Shown: positions 15,797-26,702 of the stretch, one piece after another | Position numbering within the stretch: position 1 is the first letter of the stretch | Layout of the letters: each line of letters begins with the position of its first letter | Sequence record: PX436236.1 | Strand: one strand, 5' to 3' | DNA length: 64,000 nucleotides | DNA from: a phage | Notes under the pieces: model-generated | The model's input: only the letters and a program-made list of their open reading frames with translations | Told to the model about the DNA's origin: nothing | Database searches by the model: none | Program-made: the position numbers and the translations under genes

Positions 15797-15826
15797 ATAG
15801 TACCACATCCTTGTGGTGTTGTAAAC
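15797..15826 (-). promoter_or_regulatory. Early sigma70-type promoter (GTTTAC-N18-TACTAT)
   Basis: Minus-strand -35-like GTTTAC and -10-like TACTAT about 25 nt upstream of the 96-aa ORF start. Confidence 0.55.
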
Positions 15827-17949
15827 TACATTTTGAATTTATTTGATAAAGAAGAGATATCCAAAGACGCTGCAAGGATTTCCATAGCCTCGTTGCTTTC
15901 AGAAACAGATTCATTAACCAAGAATTGACTGAACCCATCCATCAGGCGAACTTCACCAGTTTCCATCAAATGGTCACCATCGTAAACAGATTCGCTGAGC
16001 TCTGAAGGAGGCGTTACGGTAGCTTCCATAAGGTATTTGTGAGATACTCTATCATTCATGGCAAAAGCCGCTACTTTATCAACCTTCAACAATAATCCAC
16101 GCGGAAGGATAATTTCTGCTTCTTCGGCATATTCTGTAAGGTCACCAGGAGCGATAACTTTAACTGCTTCAGCACCTCGAATAACCATACCAATTTCAGC
16201 AATTCTATCTGCAGGACCTTCAGGTGCAATTGGATTACCAAACTCGTCTTCTTCCCATTCTACCTCTTCGTCATCGACTTCACCCACATCAGATGAACTA
16301 CCACTAGCCAATTTAAACAACTCATCAGCGGAGGACAAAGAACCTTCACCACCAACAAAAACGGCTTGGTTGTCGAGGGCCATATAATTTTTACCGAATT
16401 CACCAAAGATGTTAGGCTTTAATGAGGCTGACACAAAGTTCTTAAAGTAAAATGTTTTGTTATCGATATTATGGCGCAGAATTTTGTATGGCAAATCCTG
16501 ACCACGATACAAAATAGTACCCTTAGGAAGTTTAATACCCTTAGTAAATGCTGAGTCTAAATCCTTAATCAATTTAATAGCCGTTGTATTGTTTTCGGAT
16601 TCAGGTTTACCTAAAAGGAATAAGTTCATAGGAGCATATTCAGCCGCGCAATATTCAATAATAGCATTGCTTTCATCTTTGGTTAGGTCCTTAGGTTTAA
16701 TGAGCTCGCCTGAATAAGCATATGCATCACTAATAGAATCGTTAATCAGTTTATAAACGGCTTCCATAGCGAAAGCAATTCGAGATGCTTTCTCTGAAGG
16801 GGAACCCTTAAAACGGGTACTCAGGTTATTAACAATTTTCTTAATAATATCCAGACTATTGGTTGTATTGATTTGCGAAAGGCCACTTAAAAGTCTATCG
16901 ACTTCTGTATTAAAAAATGCCATATTATTAGAGTAAATTTCAAACCCTTGTTTATCTCTATTAGCATAATTTAGTTTAAATTTACTATCAGTCATTAAAG
17001 CGTGTGTGAGAGCAATAGTGTATCTAAAGTTGGCAAGGTCCTCGCTCTTAGATTTAAACTGAGAAGCCTGACGCATTTTAGTAATGGCACCTTTTTTAAA
17101 GTTCTGACTAATCTGTTCAATACCTTCGTTCTCAGGGCCTTCAGCCGTGTGAACCGGTACAGAAGCTTCAAACTCGTTATAAACCTGCAATTCTTTAGGG
17201 GACAAAGTTTCAGGCTCAGCAGTAGAATACTGCGCCGCCGCTGCCATACGACGCGAAATCTTAGTACGAGTAATGACAGCCTTATCAGTACGTTTCTCTT
17301 CAACTTGTGCAATAGATGCCGCTACGGCTTCGACCTTACTTACAGCCTGGCCGGTTTTCTTAGAAACATACACTTCGCCAACTTTAGACTCAACTTTAGT
17401 ATAAAGATCGGCATTAATTTCAGGCATACCCTTGATATCTTCAATATTAGCACCACGACGTACTAAAAGAACGTAGGTATGTTTTCCGCTGAATTGGAAC
17501 ATGTCGTCAACAACTTTAAACTTACCACCGGTACGAGCCATAGCCAAGCGAGCTAATACGCGCTGAACGGTAGGACCTTTACCTTTCATTTTCTTAGTAG
17601 GGAAACGGAACAAAACCGCGTCCATTTTAAGTTTGTTTATTTGTTCATATATGGTATCGAAAATGGTGTTCAGTGTACCGAGTGGATCGGTACCCAAACC
17701 ACCCTTGAGTTCTGCCGGGGCGCCTTTAGCAGATAAACTCATTAGGATGACATGGACGTACTTATCGCCTGGCTTAACCATTTTAATAGCGTCTCCTTGA
17801 GACGCATAAGATACCATACGAGCAACCAGATTATCATTACCTGGTGCTTGGATAGAGAAAATCTGTGGAATACCGGAACCCGGTTTAAGATTTGTTACTG
17901 GATAGTTTTTAGCGGAATCACTATCAAAAACCTCATTTAAATTTTCCAT
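15826..17949 (-). CDS. alt: Alt-like ADP-ribosyltransferase, paralog 1
   Basis: 707 aa; conserved N-terminal about 235 aa shared with the two upstream paralogs; C-terminal R-S-ExE ART motifs (LYRG, FVSASL, EAEIILPRG); N-terminal LNE gp21-protease-like site. Confidence 0.85.
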   Translation of the reverse strand: MENLNEVFDSDSAKNYPVTNLKPGSGIPQIFSIQAPGNDNLVARMVSYASQGDAIKMVKPGDKYVHVILMSLSAKGAPAELKGGLGTDPLGTLNTIFDTIYEQINKLKMDAVLFRFPTKKMKGKGPTVQRVLARLAMARTGGKFKVVDDMFQFSGKHTYVLLVRRGANIEDIKGMPEINADLYTKVESKVGEVYVSKKTGQAVSKVEAVAASIAQVEEKRTDKAVITRTKISRRMAAAAQYSTAEPETLSPKELQVYNEFEASVPVHTAEGPENEGIEQISQNFKKGAITKMRQASQFKSKSEDLANFRYTIALTHALMTDSKFKLNYANRDKQGFEIYSNNMAFFNTEVDRLLSGLSQINTTNSLDIIKKIVNNLSTRFKGSPSEKASRIAFAMEAVYKLINDSISDAYAYSGELIKPKDLTKDESNAIIEYCAAEYAPMNLFLLGKPESENNTTAIKLIKDLDSAFTKGIKLPKGTILYRGQDLPYKILRHNIDNKTFYFKNFVSASLKPNIFGEFGKNYMALDNQAVFVGGEGSLSSADELFKLASGSSSDVGEVDDEEVEWEEDEFGNPIAPEGPADRIAEIGMVIRGAEAVKVIAPGDLTEYAEEAEIILPRGLLLKVDKVAAFAMNDRVSHKYLMEATVTPPSELSESVYDGDHLMETGEVRLMDGFSQFLVNESVSESNEAMEILAASLDISSLSNKFKM

Positions 17950-17952
17950 TAT

Positions 17953-20034
17953 TTACCCTTGGATGAATTTTTCTGGGATGTCATAGAGGTCTATGCATGA
18001 AGCCAAAAGAGGCAGTACATCAAACCGTGTAGATTTAACAAATGAATCAAAAGATACAGGGCTTTCGGAAGTATCGAAGTCATCTTGATATACGACCAAC
18101 TCGCCGGTTTCCATTAGTACGTCACCATCATATACCACAGATTCTTGAAGCTCATCTGTTGTCATAACTTCAGCTTGGATGAGTTTTGTATTACTAGATG
18201 TTGTTCCATCATTATTAGAAGCATCTGTTATTTTATTAACTTTGACCATTAATCCACGTGGTAGAATAACTTCAGCTTCAGTTGCTATTCCGAGATTTCC
18301 TGGATATACGACATTAACTTTATGAGCTCCATCAATCGCCCATCCTATTTGAACTTTAACATAATCAGGATTTTCTTTATATGCTCTTATTTCATTAGGA
18401 TTAATAGTTATTCCTTCTTCATTTTTATCAACTGTCAATTCGTTGCGAACTTCCGGTTCTAAAAGACCAATACCAGCGTGCGTAACACCAAAACGTCCGA
18501 AAATTATAGGAGTTAAAGAAGTAGATACAAAATTTCTAAAATAAAACACTTTATTTTTAACTAGTGCTTCGTATATAGGAGCAGTCATACTCTGTGCACG
18601 ATAAACTGTAATGCCTTCCGGTATACGGTCACCATTTTCAAAAGCTGAATCTAAATTATTTACAGCGGATTCGATATCTTTTTCGCTCATAACCTCATAG
18701 TTCTGAGGATTATAACGTCCTAAAAGAAGATTATTTATGTCTGTATATCCTGAACCACAATATTCTCTGATACCACGCTTTTGTGATGGAGTATATTTAG
18801 AACCTTCACGAGCAATAGTAATATCAACCATAATACCACCACCCACACCAGCAAAACTATACACGCGTTTTTTAATGAACTTAGTCTTGGCTGCTTTCCA
18901 CTTGGCCTCTGTCAATTCGTTCCAAAGGTCATCAGGTTGGCCTTTACGAGTTCTGTTATGGATAGCCAGCCACTCGCCTTTATATTCTTCGAAAATGGTA
19001 TTAATAGCAGAGGCATATTTTTCTAGAGCTTTAACAGATGTCAAAGGTTCGTTTTTTATTGCTGTAAGAATTTTCTCTTTAATTTTCTCTTGGATTTCGC
19101 CAATACCGTGAAGTGGGAACATTTTATAATCGTAATGCAATTCTTCAGCAGTGCCTTCAGCCACTATATTAGCAACCTTATTTTTAGCCGCAGGAGAATT
19201 GTTATTAGTGACCATTTCCTGGGCCTCAGGGATTAATGGAACTGTTGCCGGTTTATTAAAATCTACTGCAGTAGCTTCATATTTCTTAAACAGCTCACTT
19301 TCATTACGATAAGATTCTAACGATTGACTTGCTGCAATAGCACGTCGAGAAATCTTAGTCTTGGTTATAACCATTTTATCAGTGCGACGTTCTTCAACCT
19401 TAGCAATACTACCGGCGATAGCAGTTTCTTTAGTAACCTGCACGCCTTCTTTTTTAGAAATATAAACTTCACCGACATCAGAATCTACCTTAGTATACAA
19501 TTCAGCATTAATTCCAGGCATACCTTTGATATCTTCTATATCAGCTTGTTTACGAACTACCAGGATGTAAGTATGTTTACCGGTAAATTGGTACATAGCC
19601 GGAACTACTTTAAAACGTCCACCTGTTTTCTGTGCTACCAAACGTTGGATAATCCGTTGAACGATAGGGCCTTGACCTTTCATTTTCTTAGTAGGGAAAC
19701 GGAACATCACGGCATCCATACGAAGCTTTTTAACTTGGTCATAAACCACATCAAAAATAGTATTAATCGCATCTACGGGAGTAGGGCCTAGGCCACCTTT
19801 AAGTTCGGCAGGCGAACCTTTAGCTGAAAGGCTCATAAGGATAACGTGGGCATATTTATCACCCATCTTAACCTGTTTAATAGCATCACCTTCAGAAGCA
19901 TAGGATACCATACGTGCTACTAACTGAGACTCCGCGTCTCCAATCTTCCAAATCTGAGGTACTTTAAGTTTTGGGTTCAAGTTCACAACAGGCAGTGTAC
20001 CTTCGGACTCGAACACTTCATTTAATTGGGTCAT
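17953..20034 (-). CDS. alt: Alt-like ADP-ribosyltransferase, paralog 2
   Basis: 693 aa; same N-terminal module; ART motifs VYRA, FVSTSL, EAEVILPRG; divergent middle and C-terminus. Confidence 0.85.
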   Translation of the reverse strand: MTQLNEVFESEGTLPVVNLNPKLKVPQIWKIGDAESQLVARMVSYASEGDAIKQVKMGDKYAHVILMSLSAKGSPAELKGGLGPTPVDAINTIFDVVYDQVKKLRMDAVMFRFPTKKMKGQGPIVQRIIQRLVAQKTGGRFKVVPAMYQFTGKHTYILVVRKQADIEDIKGMPGINAELYTKVDSDVGEVYISKKEGVQVTKETAIAGSIAKVEERRTDKMVITKTKISRRAIAASQSLESYRNESELFKKYEATAVDFNKPATVPLIPEAQEMVTNNNSPAAKNKVANIVAEGTAEELHYDYKMFPLHGIGEIQEKIKEKILTAIKNEPLTSVKALEKYASAINTIFEEYKGEWLAIHNRTRKGQPDDLWNELTEAKWKAAKTKFIKKRVYSFAGVGGGIMVDITIAREGSKYTPSQKRGIREYCGSGYTDINNLLLGRYNPQNYEVMSEKDIESAVNNLDSAFENGDRIPEGITVYRAQSMTAPIYEALVKNKVFYFRNFVSTSLTPIIFGRFGVTHAGIGLLEPEVRNELTVDKNEEGITINPNEIRAYKENPDYVKVQIGWAIDGAHKVNVVYPGNLGIATEAEVILPRGLMVKVNKITDASNNDGTTSSNTKLIQAEVMTTDELQESVVYDGDVLMETGELVVYQDDFDTSESPVSFDSFVKSTRFDVLPLLASCIDLYDIPEKFIQG

Positions 20035-20042
20035 AATCTATC

Positions 20043-21938
20043 CTATTTAAATAAATTTGCTAATTTTTCCATAGAATCTTCATACATAATTCTATCATAA
20101 TTTCCAAACGAGAATCCGGTGCTATATGAATTTTCCTCTGTGATTTGCTCGGTAGCTACAACTTCACATTCCACTAAAACATATTTACCAATTGAACCCA
20201 TAGGTCCCTTGGAAGCACCGTATACTTTATTAATCTTAAGCATAACCCCACGAGGAAGAATTACTTCGGTTTCTGTAGACCAATTAGCCAAGTCACCGGG
20301 CACAATAACCTTAATTTTATCAGCACCTTTAATAATTAACCCTAGCTTAATGGTATCTCTAGCACTTCCGGTCGCACTTTTAATGGTGTCTTCAAGATTA
20401 CTATCTATATCGCTAGAAAGAGCTTCAGGGTCTAAGTTGGATTGAGCATGACCCATTTCACCGAAAATATTAGGAGCCAATGAAGTTGATGCAAAAATAG
20501 GAAGATACATCACCTTATGTTTTATAGAATTCAAAGCCATTTCGGTAGGCATTATCTGAGAACGATACACTATGGTTCCTTTAGGAAGTTTTGTACCATT
20601 TTCAAATGTAGAATCCAACTCACCAATCATTTTTATCATTTCATCGGTGGTATCTGTTTTACCTAGCAAAAAGTTGTTTATATGGTTGTAGCCGCCACGA
20701 GTATACTTTTTGACTGCCTCTTCTTGAGGTTTGGATAAATTAGGATTATCAGATATCTTAAACAATGGTTGGATAGATTTTGTATAAACTGCTACTAAGG
20801 ATTTTATTACTTCCTTGATTTTAGATTCTCTAGCCCAAGTACCTTTAACTGAATCATCTAAAAGGGCCGCAGCGACTAGTCTAAGAATGTCTACATTAGA
20901 TTTACCTGATTTTAAAGCCTCTATGACACTATTAGATTTATCTAAAGAATCTGATGCCTCTAAAGCAAACTTTATATCAGCAATTAGTTTAAGTTTGCGC
21001 TCGTCTACTTCAAATGATGGATTAACACCGTTAAAAATATAATCCAAATATTCTGCCATTTCTTTAGAGGCGTCTTTTAATATTTTATTACTGGCTAAAG
21101 CTATTTGGCTTTCTTTAGAATCTTCAGAAGAATGAACGGAACTAGTAGCAGAATAATCTGCATAAGCTTTTTTGTGCTCTGCCGAAAATTTACTCAATCC
21201 TGTAGGCTCGGCGGTAGAATATAACGCATTTATAGCGGCCCGTTTAGAAACCTTAGTCTTGGTTATAACCATTTTATCAGAACGTGATTTTTCTATTTCG
21301 TCTATAGACTTAGCTATAGCTTCTAATTTGGTAACATCTTCGCCTGTTTTCTTTGAAACATACACATCACCGACTTCAGATTCGACTTTAGTATACAATT
21401 CCGGATTAATATTAGGAATACCGTTTATTGATTCTATATTTTTATTTTTACGATAGATAAAAACATATGAATGTTTGCCTGTATATTGATACAAGGCATC
21501 AAGGACCTTGAATTGCCCACCTGCTCTAGTAGCTATTAATTTGGCTAGAACTCGTTGTACAGCTTTTTCCTGACCTTTCATTTTCTTAGTAGGAAAACGG
21601 AACATAACGGCATCCATACGGAGCTTTTTAACTTGTTCATAAACCGTATCAAATATAGAACGAATAGCGGAAATGGGGTTACTACCTAAACCACCTTTGA
21701 GTTCTGCCGGGGCCCCTTTAGATGATAGGCTCATTAAAATAATATGAACGTATTTGTCACCCGGTTTAACTTGGCGGATTGTATCACCTTCAGAAGTATA
21801 TGAAACCATGCGTGCAACAAGGTTCTCATTACCTTCAGCCTTTATATTCCAAATCTGCGGTACTTTAAGTTTAGGGTTTAAATTGACAGCTGATAAATCT
21901 ATAGCGCCGTCAAATACCTCATTCAATTGTTCGGACAT
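20043..21938 (-). CDS. alt: Alt-like ADP-ribosyltransferase, paralog 3
   Basis: 631 aa; same N-terminal module; ART motifs VYRS, FASTSL, ETEVILPRG; divergent C-terminus. Confidence 0.85.
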   Translation of the reverse strand: MSEQLNEVFDGAIDLSAVNLNPKLKVPQIWNIKAEGNENLVARMVSYTSEGDTIRQVKPGDKYVHIILMSLSSKGAPAELKGGLGSNPISAIRSIFDTVYEQVKKLRMDAVMFRFPTKKMKGQEKAVQRVLAKLIATRAGGQFKVLDALYQYTGKHSYVFIYRKNKNIESINGIPNINPELYTKVESEVGDVYVSKKTGEDVTKLEAIAKSIDEIEKSRSDKMVITKTKVSKRAAINALYSTAEPTGLSKFSAEHKKAYADYSATSSVHSSEDSKESQIALASNKILKDASKEMAEYLDYIFNGVNPSFEVDERKLKLIADIKFALEASDSLDKSNSVIEALKSGKSNVDILRLVAAALLDDSVKGTWARESKIKEVIKSLVAVYTKSIQPLFKISDNPNLSKPQEEAVKKYTRGGYNHINNFLLGKTDTTDEMIKMIGELDSTFENGTKLPKGTIVYRSQIMPTEMALNSIKHKVMYLPIFASTSLAPNIFGEMGHAQSNLDPEALSSDIDSNLEDTIKSATGSARDTIKLGLIIKGADKIKVIVPGDLANWSTETEVILPRGVMLKINKVYGASKGPMGSIGKYVLVECEVVATEQITEENSYSTGFSFGNYDRIMYEDSMEKLANLFK

Positions 21939-21990: not shown

Positions 21991-22213
21991 AAAGTGGTAG
22001 CAACGTACGGTATACTTCAAATTTAGGACCCTTTTCATAGCGGTCGAAATTATCTTTAAAATCAGCGAATGCGATTTCATTTTCAAATTCAAGGACAATT
22101 TGGGACACTGCGGTGGAGACATCGCCACCTTCTTTATATCCAATAACCACGGTTTCTAAATAAGCTTTCATATTATAGTCCAGTTTGAGACCAATCGCCA
22201 AATACATCTTCAA
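21989..22213 (-). CDS. Hypothetical protein
   Basis: 74 aa ORF downstream of ligase; start uncertain (alternative ATG at 22171). Confidence 0.45.
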   Translation of the reverse strand: MKMYLAIGLKLDYNMKAYLETVVIGYKEGGDVSTAVSQIVLEFENEIAFADFKDNFDRYEKGPKFEVYRTLLPL

Positions 22214-23696
22214 ATGAATCGGCTTCCGTTTTATCGAAACGCCAACCTTTAATAGTTGGAAGGAAAATACTTACAGTATCAGTGCGTCCTTTAGAATGAA
22301 CCCACCCATTACATTCACAGTCGGCAATACGCCCAATCAACTTACCTTCACGGGCTTGTTTCATAAGAAGTTCACGGTCTAAATCAGGACGATCTTCCAA
22401 TGGAATCAATACCTTTTTACCAGATTTATCTTTCTTATGGGTGGTATCTTTAAAACCAGAACCACAGTCAGTTGTAATACGACGACAACGTGATACTAAC
22501 TCTATACCGCCAATCTTATTGGGGTCCTTCGAGTGTTCATAGTAACCTACTACTTCTAAAGCAATATCGATTACTTCTTTGAACTTGATAAGATTCTTAG
22601 AACGGCGGTTCTCCCAGTAGGAGTCCATGTTCTTAAGGATAATACCTTCCAAGCGTTTACCGATATATTTCTTATAAACCGCTTTAGCTTCAGCCAAATT
22701 GTTAACCCATTGGTTTTCAATAGCTTCAACACGCGTTGTACCATGCAATACGACATTATGGGCAACCATAAGTTCTAAGGCTGTAAAGCGTACATCATAC
22801 TTATCGCCTTTAATTTTACCTTCGGAATATACGACATCCAATGGGACATAATCCCATGCCTGTAATACCATACCTGCGGCTTCGGTCGGAGTAATAGTTC
22901 CTTGAAGAGCCTTGTTAGCCAAGCCGTTTGAAGTGGAACGATCGGCGACAGTTTGGAATTCCTTAGCCTTACTTAATTCAGGAAGTTCCTCATCAAACAT
23001 ACTAAACAAATCATTAGATGCTTTAGGTTCTACTTTAGGAGTATGGTAAACTAATTCACCATCAATCATAACACCATTAGGATGACGTTGACGAGCTTCT
23101 TCGGTCATCACCATTAATTCAGCAGCTAAAAGATGAAGCCCTTGGTATTCATTACCACCACGAGTAAGGAACGTCACACCATCATTACGAACTTCAGCAA
23201 AACAACGAGCGCCATCAGCTTTTAATTGAGCAAACGCTGGCCATTTAATATTTTTCTTAATCAAAGCTTCATCATAAGAACTCGCCAACATCTGCGGTTG
23301 TTCAGGGATTAAACCTTTCCAAACCTTGTTAGCAATAGAAATCGATGCACCACATTCAAGGTCGCGCATCATTACACGACGTAATACCTCGGCATCCGGG
23401 GCCTTAGCATCAGCAATGATTTGAGCCAGTTCTTCAATAGCCGCATTACCCGTAATCTTACGTGTGGCTAATGTGAATTCAGCGAAATCAAGAAGGTCTT
23501 CAAGAGTAATCATACCAAAGGATTGAGATGTAAATCCAGGTTCTGGCCACTTTTTAATACCGTAGTTCAGACGACGGGTATAAGCCATACGATAAACACG
23601 TTTCAGAAGCTCATTGTTCTTTTCACGAGCAATAATGGCTTCTTTAGCTTTAGTAGAATCAATAGCAGCAATTTCGTTTAAAATATCTAAAATCAT
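22173..23696 (-). CDS. 30: ATP-dependent DNA ligase gp30
   Basis: 507 aa from internal ATG with RBS GAGGTG; matches remembered T4 ligase throughout (MILKILNEIA.., FAQLKADGARCFAEV, ECNGW). Confidence 0.9.
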   Translation of the reverse strand: MILDILNEIAAIDSTKAKEAIIAREKNNELLKRVYRMAYTRRLNYGIKKWPEPGFTSQSFGMITLEDLLDFAEFTLATRKITGNAAIEELAQIIADAKAPDAEVLRRVMMRDLECGASISIANKVWKGLIPEQPQMLASSYDEALIKKNIKWPAFAQLKADGARCFAEVRNDGVTFLTRGGNEYQGLHLLAAELMVMTEEARQRHPNGVMIDGELVYHTPKVEPKASNDLFSMFDEELPELSKAKEFQTVADRSTSNGLANKALQGTITPTEAAGMVLQAWDYVPLDVVYSEGKIKGDKYDVRFTALELMVAHNVVLHGTTRVEAIENQWVNNLAEAKAVYKKYIGKRLEGIILKNMDSYWENRRSKNLIKFKEVIDIALEVVGYYEHSKDPNKIGGIELVSRCRRITTDCGSGFKDTTHKKDKSGKKVLIPLEDRPDLDRELLMKQAREGKLIGRIADCECNGWVHSKGRTDTVSIFLPTIKGWRFDKTEADSFEDVFGDWSQTGL

Positions 23697-23706
23697 AATC
23701 ACCTCA

Positions 23707-23985
23707 TTAGTCATGGATTCTATTATAAGCCACATCAGCCAAAAGCAAGTCTAATCGCTTATGATAAGAGAACACAAATCTCATTCGCCCATCAGATTTG
23801 AACTTGGACATAAAGTGGACATAAATGAATCCCTGTTCGACGCATTCGCGCCAAACAGGATGGTCTTTAGCCGGATTTACATCAAATGAGTAATCATGAT
23901 TCACATGACGAATAAACTGGTTTACATGACCATAATCCATTGTAGTGGTAGGACCATAGTCTGAAATTGTATGAACTACAAACAT
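23707..23985 (-). CDS. Hypothetical protein (30.1 region)
   Basis: 92 aa from internal ATG with RBS GAGG. Confidence 0.5.
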   Translation of the reverse strand: MFVVHTISDYGPTTTMDYGHVNQFIRHVNHDYSFDVNPAKDHPVWRECVEQGFIYVHFMSKFKSDGRMRFVFSYHKRLDLLLADVAYNRIHD

Positions 23986-23986
23986 A

Positions 23987-24625
23987 TTAACCTCGAGCAA
24001 TCCATTCAACTGCGGCATTATTACGAAGGGATTCGATTGCTGCGATATCGTCCCATGAATTAACCTTTACGGCTAAATTAGGTTTAAAGTCACGTTCACC
24101 ACGAGCTAACCAATAAACTTGGATATCCATGAGAACATTAGATGCAGCATCACAGTGGTGAGCCAAATCATCAACATAAAACTTAATACGTTTACCGTAC
24201 GTATTTTTAGCTCTTATGAAGAGGTCTTCTTTTGATTCTGAATGACCACACATCAGAATCTCCTTGAATGCGCCAGGGAACAAAGCATTCAAATTGAATT
24301 GTCTATTCAGCAGGGCATCAATTGAGTCGCCTAGCGCAGTCACGGCTACAAAATCGAAGTCTTTTTTGAGCCTGTTGATATGTTTTAATGCGTCCATGTA
24401 AGGAGACAGATAACGAATAAAATCTGACTGATTATATTTCTCGATTAAACGAGCGCCTAATTCATTATCACAATTAAACAGCTCGCCTGGAGATAAGAAA
24501 CGTTCGTCCTGAATCATATTCAAAATATGTTCTAAAGGCAAATTATATTTCTGTGCGAAATAAGGCAAGCCGGACTGCCAACTTAAACATACTCCATCGA
24601 TATCTGTTAAGATAACTGGTTTCAT
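23987..24625 (-). CDS. HAD-superfamily hydrolase-like protein
   Basis: 212 aa; N-terminal ILTDIDGV (HAD motif I DxDG), later TALGDS and VDD acidic motif. Confidence 0.5.
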   Translation of the reverse strand: MKPVILTDIDGVCLSWQSGLPYFAQKYNLPLEHILNMIQDERFLSPGELFNCDNELGARLIEKYNQSDFIRYLSPYMDALKHINRLKKDFDFVAVTALGDSIDALLNRQFNLNALFPGAFKEILMCGHSESKEDLFIRAKNTYGKRIKFYVDDLAHHCDAASNVLMDIQVYWLARGERDFKPNLAVKVNSWDDIAAIESLRNNAAVEWIARG

Positions 24626-25080
24626 AATAAATCTCTCAATTTGTTTAGGATGTCGATAAACTCTTTTTCAGTTAGTATTGTATCACATTCTGTAAGGTGG
24701 CTCGCCATCGAATGCTTTAAAACTTTGCCCTTTGTAGCTTGTAATGCGTCGCGGAATCCTTTGTTTTGGAGCGCTGCTTCAAAATATGCATTTGTATACA
24801 ACTCTTTCCATGATGTAGAGTATCTTGAAAAGGGAATTCCAAGCCAGAACAGCGTCCCACGGTCCGCAGCTCTAGCATAAGCTCTTCCAGTTTGTTGTGC
24901 GGCCAGACCGGACATCCCAAATATACGTTTTTGTTGTTCATGATTTCTCACCTTACATCCTTGGAGGAATCCTTCGAGCCCACCAAATTGGATACCATCC
25001 ATAACGAAAGGCCATTTAGCAAAGTTACTTAATGCACACGATGGCCATGGAAAATTGCTTCTTATTTCTAACTCAGACAT
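24622..25080 (-). CDS. NADAR/YbiA-like (DUF1768-like) protein, tentative
   Basis: 152 aa from first ATG (track uses GTG); segment LSNFAKWPFVMDGIQFGGLEGFLQGCK resembles the YbiA/NADAR SNF..WP..VDG..E.FQ..K core. Confidence 0.4.
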   Translation of the reverse strand: MSELEIRSNFPWPSCALSNFAKWPFVMDGIQFGGLEGFLQGCKVRNHEQQKRIFGMSGLAAQQTGRAYARAADRGTLFWLGIPFSRYSTSWKELYTNAYFEAALQNKGFRDALQATKGKVLKHSMASHLTECDTILTEKEFIDILNKLRDLL

Positions 25081-25285
25081 CTTTGACACTTATAATTTCG
25101 ACATCAGCCCAATGACCATAACCAGGTAGACGGTCTTTAATAGATAATCCGCCGTCAGATTTCAGCATTTTAATTGTTTTAGTATATGGTTCATCTTGTG
25201 GATGCACAGGAGATAAATCAGTTACACGATAAGTCACTTCGACCATTTCCGTACCTAATAATTTCTGAATCAATTTCTTAAACAT
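25073..25285 (-). CDS. Hypothetical protein
   Basis: 70 aa ORF with RBS GAGGA. Confidence 0.5.
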   Translation of the reverse strand: MFKKLIQKLLGTEMVEVTYRVTDLSPVHPQDEPYTKTIKMLKSDGGLSIKDRLPGYGHWADVEIISVKDV

Positions 25286-26248: not shown

Positions 26249-26581
26249 TTATTTCACAACATTCCAATTTTTCATATCAAGTTTACCAACTTTTTTCATC
26301 TGAGCAATCAGACGTTCAGCACGTGTACGGGCATTAACATAATAGAATTCACCATTTTTGTTTTCTTCAATACGACCAGTAATTACAGTTTTCAGTTCAT
26401 AAATCCAACCTGTAAAGAAGTTGTGAAGCTCGATGGTGAATGTAAAATCAGTACCCATACCTTCAGTTGTTTCAACTTCGATGATATCACCTTCAACTGC
26501 AGTCAGGACCCACATGGTTTCTTGATATTCACCGTTGAAACATTTAGCTTTAACAGATGCATTCAGATTTACAGTTTTCAT
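26249..26581 (-). CDS. Hypothetical protein
   Basis: 110 aa; promoter-leader nearly identical to that at 26176-26246. Confidence 0.5.
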   Translation of the reverse strand: MKTVNLNASVKAKCFNGEYQETMWVLTAVEGDIIEVETTEGMGTDFTFTIELHNFFTGWIYELKTVITGRIEENKNGEFYYVNARTRAERLIAQMKKVGKLDMKNWNVVK

Positions 26582-26651: not shown

Positions 26652-26679
26652 CCTTTTTTAAAGATTTAGAAACAAAAAT

Positions 26680-26697
26680 GGGACTCCGAAGAGTCCC
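26680..26697 (-). terminator. Intrinsic terminator with UUCG loop
   Basis: mRNA-sense GGGACUC-UUCG-GAGUCCC followed by AUUUUUGUUUC. Confidence 0.7.
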
Positions 26698-26702
26698 ATA
26701 AC

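Follow-up and report, generated by a model that had tools for sequence, protein, structure and literature searches.

Orthologues of T4 genes 30.3 (adfN) and 30.2 in a Dhakavirus-like phage: an orphan NADAR-fold protein next to a predicted NT5C-like HAD phosphatase

Two minus-strand open reading frames lie side by side between positions 23,987 and 25,080 of the 64,000-nucleotide window of phage DNA analyzed here (sequence record PX436236.1). The upstream frame, ORF-B (24622..25080, minus strand), encodes a protein of 152 aa from its ATG, with a GTG in the same frame at 25089; it is the orthologue of T4 gene 30.3 (adfN) and, by orthology, codes for a putative NADAR-fold DNA ADP-ribosylglycohydrolase. 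The downstream frame, ORF-A (23987..24625, minus strand), is the orthologue of T4 gene 30.2 and encodes 212 aa predicted to form a C1-capped, NT5C-like HAD phosphatase, in a short form without the C-terminal tail of T4. The sequence itself shows the overlap between them (24622..24625, minus strand): ‘tcat’ on the plus strand, hence ATGA on the minus strand, holds both the stop of ORF-B and the start of ORF-A. T4 has an identical 4-nt overlap between 30.3 and 30.2. The original prediction of two coupled frames joined by ATGA is thus borne out, in its coordinates as in its strand.

The neighbouring genes are also readily assigned. Upstream of adfN are small ORFs matching T4 30.4 to 30.7, and the 30.4 orthologue (25073..25285, minus strand; 70 aa, phrog_2042 E=4.8e-34) ends in an 8-nt overlap of its stop with the start of adfN. 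On the other side a single small gene, the T4 30.1 orthologue (23707..24018, minus strand; DUF3045, Pfam PF11243 E=5.9e-16 over residues 12-101 of the listed ORF), separates 30.2 from the gene for the ATP-dependent DNA ligase, T4 gp30 (22173..23735, minus strand; PF01068 E=3e-22). The true start of 30.1 is likely to be the ATG at 23985, one base past the 30.2 stop, and that of the ligase is likely to be M14 of the listed ORF, at about 23696. Beyond the ligase, three Alt-like ADP-ribosyltransferase genes stand in tandem at 15826-21938, all on the minus strand (15826-17949, 17953-20034 and 20043-21938; PF03496 E=2.5e-17, 4.5e-36 and 7.6e-14), and are considered here as context only; the ligase and three ADP-ribosyltransferases named in the original prediction are therefore in place. 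The T4 reference gene order is alt, alt.1, 30, 30.1, 30.2, 30.3, 30.4. In a scan for promoters and terminators, promoter-like sites were not enriched and the 30.3/30.2 junction gave no convincing signal.

At the DNA level the window has 99.7% identity with Enterobacteria phage vB_EcoM_IME540 and 94-99% with Bp7, IME08, WG01 and QL01. The source is a Dhakavirus-like T-even phage, and both ORFs are orthologues of T4 30.3 and 30.2, names that are used in some related phage records; in most database records both genes are listed as ‘hypothetical protein’. The first reading of the sequence did not recognize either frame as a characterized T4 gene, and this has to be corrected, as gene 30.3 has been published as AdfN, with genetic and biochemical evidence (PMC11825919, PMC11125620). 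ORF-B has 177 homologues and ORF-A has 123 (E<=1e-3 for ORF-B), and tblastn finds each gene in about 1,400-1,500 phage records (1423 and 1511) with an identical host spectrum, numbers which indicate that both are real genes rather than chance ORFs.

The ORF-B product and T4 gp30.3 share 86% identity along their full 152 aa, and none of the 22 substitutions falls at a catalytic position. In Pfam the ORF-B product matches PF08010 (‘Phage_30_3’; 215.1 bits, cutoff 36, E=3.6e-64). The segment first described as NADAR-like, LSNFAKWPFVMDGIQFGGLEGFLQGCK, lies at residues 17-43. PF08719, the NADAR family itself, is not matched by the single 152-aa sequence in Pfam and NCBIfam searches; two gp30.3 homologues (P0023 and P0098) are also matched by PF08719, and some homologues carry YbiA or DUF1768 as their source names. 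The sole PDB sequence match of gp30.3 is YbiA (2b3w), with E=1.2 for the single sequence and 0.021 for a 55-sequence profile. This sequence link to classical NADARs is weak, and the predicted structure settles the assignment. The AlphaFold2 model has a pLDDT of 95.3, and its meaningful Foldseek matches in the PDB are the three solved NADAR structures only, with YbiA 2b3w at the top (E=5.8e-5, TM 0.67), together with PnNADAR of Phytophthora (8bau, with ADP-ribose) and the Geobacter lovleyi NADAR (8bat). Residues E36, K43 and H123 are present and are invariant across 55 homologues, and the C-terminal helix is intact, the alignment reaching T4 residue 152 and the model placing the helix at 138-151. 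The NADAR call made for ORF-B from the letters alone is upheld by these fold matches and residues. The protein is a member of the phage gp30.3/AdfN subfamily of NADAR (PF08010, related to PF08719), and the window allele retains all features known to matter for AdfN.

Resistance of T-even phages to DarTG1 has been mapped to gene 30.3, which was renamed adfN (Johannesman et al., Nat Commun 2025, PMC11825919). In that report, protection by T4 AdfN is weakened by E36A and by K43A, the C-terminal helix is needed, and RB69, which has lost this helix through a frameshift, is DarTG1-sensitive; purified AdfN takes ADP-ribose off DarT1-modified DNA, and T5 and Bas25 are rescued only weakly. An independent study adds that T4 AdfN hydrolyzes guanine-ADPr but not thymine-ADPr in vitro, and that a His in the last strand is a recognized hallmark of phage NADARs (PMC11125620). 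In the HIDEN-SEQ transposon preprint T4 gene 30.3 is non-essential on K-12 and conditionally essential under DarTG1 challenge (log2FC -7.25, q=0). An anti-defence role, which was among the options raised for the locus, is therefore correct for the NADAR member, the T4 orthologue being AdfN against DarTG1. The identification of gp30.3 as AdfN was published in 2023-2025, and AdfN biology gains nothing new here.

The likeness to T4 AdfN covers the genomic position, the ATGA overlap with 30.2, and E36 and K43 together with the phage-type His123, and the window protein keeps the helix that RB69 lacks. The DarG1/DarT1-associated NADAR antitoxins and E. coli YbiA (PF08719; 8bat, 8bau, 2b3w) have in common with it the alpha+beta NADAR fold and the Glu/Lys catalytic pair. 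There are several differences: in its last strand gp30.3 has a His where the DarG1 and YbiA NADARs carry Asp or Glu, the N-terminal extension of DarG1 is absent, and gp30.3 is an orphan with no adjacent DarT, its neighbours being 30.4 and 30.2. Also unlike the DarG1 antitoxins, T4 AdfN is no antitoxin in uninfected cells, since it does not rescue E. coli from DarT1 toxicity (PMC11825919). Membership in a DarTG1 toxin–antitoxin system was considered and rejected, as no ADP-ribosyltransferase gene adjoins 30.3 and T4 AdfN fails in this rescue; gp30.3 is an orphan counter-defence gene and not part of a TA module.

Over residues 1-191 the ORF-A product shares 74% identity with T4 gp30.2, and the low-complexity C-terminal tail of T4 (~85 aa) is missing from it. 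All four HAD motifs can be placed, with D8-I-D10-G-V as motif I, T96 as motif II, K132 as motif III and D152-D153 as motif IV, and the strings quoted for this frame are found at residues 5-12 (ILTDIDGV), 96-101 (TALGDS) and 151-153 (VDD). Among 46 homologues D8, D10, K132, D152 and D153 are invariant and T96 is nearly so; D8, D10 and D153 are still invariant in an 84-sequence alignment that extends down to 21% identity. The AlphaFold2 model (pLDDT 94.1) has a HAD core and a four-helix C1 cap. The motifs and model agree with the initial HAD call, and we regard gp30.2 as a predicted phosphatase of the HAD superfamily.

Simple searches would have misled for both proteins. Pfam and NCBIfam searches with the single gp30.2 sequence give no significant match to any curated HAD model, and its only Pfam match is to NT5C (PF06941) at 13.8 bits (E=0.053); the gathering score is 24.8, and gp30.2 is therefore not to be listed under NT5C in Pfam. 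Phmmer searches of the PDB with the single sequences of both proteins return weak matches only. Of the checks suggested at the outset, profile searching thus succeeded in part, PF08010 being recovered for ORF-B while PF08719 went unmatched and ORF-A gave nothing beyond the sub-threshold NT5C match, and structure prediction succeeded for both frames, with a NADAR fold for ORF-B and a HAD core and C1 cap for ORF-A. Because naive profile searches miss both folds and family profiles and structure prediction are needed, neither fold call is trivial.

Profiles of the wider family indicate where gp30.2 belongs among the HAD enzymes. NT5C is the commonest Pfam family among its members (40 of 84), and the profile of the broad family aligns along the whole of 3bwv, a putative 5’(3’)-deoxyribonucleotidase (E=9e-8); structure comparison by itself cannot tell NT5C apart from the other C1-capped HADs. 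The NT5C enzymes (PF06941; cdN and mdN, PDB 2jao and 4mum, and bacterial 3bwv) have the HAD core with a C1 helical cap, the DxDGV motif I and the DD motif IV, as in gp30.2, and gp30.2 W16, an aromatic residue 8 positions past the nucleophile, aligns with a Phe of cdN. Identity to these enzymes is about 15-18%, which goes with the score below the Pfam threshold. On this sequence evidence the NT5C-type 5’(3’)-deoxyribonucleotidases appear to be the closest described family, and gp30.2 is most likely a (deoxy)nucleoside-monophosphate phosphatase. A literature search returned no paper on gp30.2 and no biochemical data on its homologues.

The original prediction also treated the two products as a pair that processes ADP-ribose and is tied to the three ADP-ribosyltransferases of the phage, either reversing self-ADP-ribosylation or salvaging ADP-ribose. 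The ATGA overlap, the shared orientation of 30.3 and 30.2, the nearby Alt-like genes and the nearly identical sets of ~1,400-1,500 phage genomes in which both are found could be read in this way, and a comparative-genomics paper describes phage NADARs as expressed early along with ADP-ribosyltransferases. The transposon data, which come from the HIDEN-SEQ preprint, point elsewhere: under DarTG1 challenge, where 30.3 insertions are lost, insertions in T4 30.2 are neutral (log2FC -0.12, p=0.61, q=1, 71 TA sites), a value in which redundancy could hide a helper role of 30.2. With adfN upstream of 30.2, no effect of these insertions can be hidden by polarity; on K-12, and in the comparison of M9 with LB, 30.2 insertions are neutral as well (HIDEN-SEQ preprint), and none of the conditions looked at gave T4 30.2 a phenotype. 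Neither T4 alt insertions (DarTG1 sheet) nor those in modA or modB (RnlAB sheet) have a significant fitness effect, and the substrate demonstrated for the NADAR in published work is guanine-ADPr on DNA, made by the host DarT1, and not a product of the Alt-like enzymes. The link to the phage’s own ADP-ribosyltransferases is thus unsupported rather than disproved.

The genome comparisons bear on the same question. AdfN is adjacent to gp30.2 in 19 of 68 gp30.2 loci, gp30.2 lies within 6 kb of AdfN in 20 of 81 AdfN loci, most of the distant AdfN loci have no gp30.2 within 6 kb, and in several genomes the two genes are 55-60 kb apart, so that their adjacency is lineage-specific. Their co-occurrence at the genome level carries no information, because both genes are quasi-core in the Straboviridae. 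HAD phosphatases, moreover, cleave phosphomonoesters, and ADP-ribose is no obvious substrate for such an enzyme. A Rosetta-stone search found no fusion of a gp30.2-type HAD with a ligase or a NADAR, and the sole informative fusion is to a Pol-beta-like nucleotidyltransferase. The notion of an ADP-ribose-processing pair is not supported: 30.2 and 30.3 are not a functional pair, given that DarTG1 depletes insertions in 30.3 and not in 30.2 and that gp30.2 is syntenic with the ligase, and we think it quite improbable that the two enzymes act together on products of the phage’s ADP-ribosyltransferases.

A related proposal is that gp30.2 helps AdfN. The AdfN report proposes that a further T-even protein is required for full AdfN activity (PMC11825919), and gp30.2, whose gene is coupled in translation to adfN both in T4 and in this phage, would be a candidate. 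The contrast between 30.2 and 30.3 insertions in the T4 library under DarTG1 and the AdfN loci without gp30.2 nearby both argue against it; on the HIDEN-SEQ DarTG1 data and the synteny we reject gp30.2 as the potentiating factor, and leave this proposal only the slightest likelihood. Gene 30.4 was also weighed as a partner of AdfN. Insertions in T4 30.4 are mildly depleted under DarTG1 (log2FC -1.79, q=0.014; HIDEN-SEQ preprint), which is most simply a polar effect on adfN, and the gene is restricted to 15 close T-even relatives. The other genes upstream of adfN are diverse, and neither 30.4 nor another conserved neighbour was retained as a partner.

The gene that does accompany 30.2 is that for DNA ligase, which lies downstream in 68 of 68 gp30.2 loci and within 500 bp in 66 of these; a 4-nt overlap between the HAD gene and the start of the ligase gene is seen in one distant T4-like genome. 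It is gp30.2-(30.1)-ligase that forms the conserved module, with AdfN as a movable neighbour. This raises the question of whether gp30.2 could act together with the ligase on the ends of nucleic acids, for instance as a DNA 3’-phosphatase like the HAD domain of T4 Pnkp, which would render nicks fit for ligation. The C1 cap in HAD enzymes typically excludes macromolecular substrates, and the Pnkp and Tpp1 phosphatases have no such cap; gp30.2 is predicted to carry one, of four helices. Its strongest profile links are to the NT5C nucleotidases, and T4-like gene order is broadly conserved, which makes synteny alone weak evidence. In addition, distant members of the gp30.2 family outside the T4-like phages adjoin genes of nucleotide metabolism without a ligase, their neighbours including NrdAB (ribonucleotide reductase) and ThyA (thymidylate synthase), FEN/RNaseH, PhoH and a second NT5C-like gene. 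An action on DNA ends is accordingly an unlikely explanation of the ligase synteny.

We therefore favour, with a probability of about 0.85, the reading that 30.3 and 30.2 are Dhakavirus-type orthologues of two T4 early genes which encode AdfN and an NT5C-like HAD phosphatase as two independent enzymes. The two genes are adjacent and translationally coupled in T-even-type genomes. For AdfN, the host toxin DarT1 would ADP-ribosylate guanines of the phage DNA and so block replication; AdfN, a putative stand-alone NADAR-fold hydrolase, would cut the guanine-ribose N-glycosidic bond, freeing ADP-ribose and restoring the base, and the phage could then replicate in DarTG1-carrying cells. We infer this activity for the window protein from its 86% identity to T4, from E36, K43 and H123, and from the intact C-terminal helix. 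gp30.2 would be a Mg2+-dependent HAD phosphatase whose four-helix C1 cap is expected to enclose small-molecule substrates, and it would most likely dephosphorylate (deoxy)nucleoside monophosphates and so edit the nucleotide pool during infection. Its conserved genomic partner is the DNA ligase gene and not AdfN, and it is probably dispensable for the anti-DarTG1 function of AdfN.

A more specific role for gp30.2 is suggested by comparison with phage T5. T5 Dmp is an early-gene deoxynucleoside-5’-monophosphatase that blocks Kongming immunity by depleting dAMP, and so combines a metabolic with an anti-defence role (bioRxiv 10.1101/2024.12.20.629578); this preprint contains no report on T4-like phages, and gp30.2 is not known to have an anti-defence phenotype. 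Dmp is an early phage gene like gp30.2, and HAD-type motifs can be recognized in it by eye (DLDGT, TARL, IDDH); by analogy it would be the nearest functional counterpart of gp30.2. Membership of gp30.2 in the Dmp family was rejected, as hhalign gives a probability of 4.3% over a 58-column stretch around motif IV only, and Dmp itself has no match in Pfam. Since gp30.2 is quasi-core, has intact catalytic residues and always lies just upstream of the ligase, it is a reasonable candidate to act against nucleotide-sensing defences. That gp30.2 is a Dmp-like early dNMP phosphatase with a counter-defence role, or in a variant that it is coupled to the ligase through a common task in DNA metabolism, is speculative, and we would give this reading only a small chance.

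For annotation, the 152-aa gene could be named adfN (anti-DarT1 NADAR) and the 212-aa gene an NT5C-like HAD phosphatase, and gp30.2 can be taken off the list of candidates for the additional T-even factor needed by AdfN. Should the Dmp-like role hold, gp30.2 would destroy dNMPs derived from host DNA (dAMP or m6-dAMP) that feed or trigger nucleotide-sensing defences such as Kongming (dITP) or PUA-Cal-HAD, and the 30.2-30.3 segment would be an islet of two independent enzymatic anti-defence genes in ~1,400 sequenced Straboviridae.

Of all the small genes of the region, the HAD phosphatase gene 30.2 has by far the most constant linkage, its partner being DNA ligase. When the gp30.2-to-ligase block (22173–24625, minus strand) was compared with 68 viral contig loci (L082–L149; 43–100% identity), DNA ligase was found directly downstream of the gp30.2-type HAD gene in all of them, and at a further locus (L152) the HAD and ligase genes share a 4-nt overlap. 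We found no published explanation for this constant linkage.

The C-terminus of gp30.2 (encoded at 23987–24060, minus strand) is of the short form in this lineage, giving a protein of 212 aa, and T4 gp30.2 and many other homologues carry a Pro/aromatic-rich tail of 60–90 aa, several of them with a common GIEYL..RQPTA-like motif near the tail end. As this lineage lacks the tail, the core enzyme can do without it. In the 591-aa metagenomic protein P0294, a Pol-beta-like nucleotidyltransferase domain containing a GDLDIIIE motif (phrog_24943, annotated as ‘DNA polymerase’) is fused to a gp30.2-type HAD domain (residues 385–581); this fusion points tentatively to nucleotides or nucleic acids as substrates of the gp30.2-type HAD family.

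The wider region encodes three tandem Alt-like ADP-ribosyltransferase paralogues (PF03496; 15826–21938, minus strand) of 707, 693 and 631 aa, whereas in T4 only one alt gene occupies this position. Around genes 30.1 to 30.8 there are more terminator-like sites than expected (10 versus 3.8). On the minus strand there is a hairpin with a 13-bp stem (23831–23860) within the 30.1 coding region, and a clean hairpin of the terminator type, with a T-run after it (26678–26699), just upstream of a 30.8-like ORF (26249–26581).

Within adfN, the T4 gene 30.3 orthologue coding for a predicted DNA ADP-ribosylglycohydrolase, lies a 74-aa alternative-frame ORF (24717–24941, minus strand) that is the counterpart of the annotated T4 30.3’. 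The frame is open in both phages, but their identity is only 62% in the 30.3’ frame, against 86% in the main adfN frame, so that purifying selection acting on it independently is not indicated. The T4 30.4 orthologue (25073–25285, minus strand), which is restricted to close T-even relatives, runs 8 nt into adfN, its stop overlapping the start of that gene; the same 8-nt overlap exists in T4. In the HIDEN-SEQ transposon screen of T4, 30.4 has a log2 fold change of -1.79 (q=0.014) under DarTG1 challenge and is the only significant gene besides 30.3 in those DarTG1-sheet rows that were examined. The simplest reading of this signal is a polar or translational-coupling effect. Gene 30.4 is nevertheless the one neighbouring gene remaining as a candidate for the putative additional T-even factor proposed for full AdfN activity.
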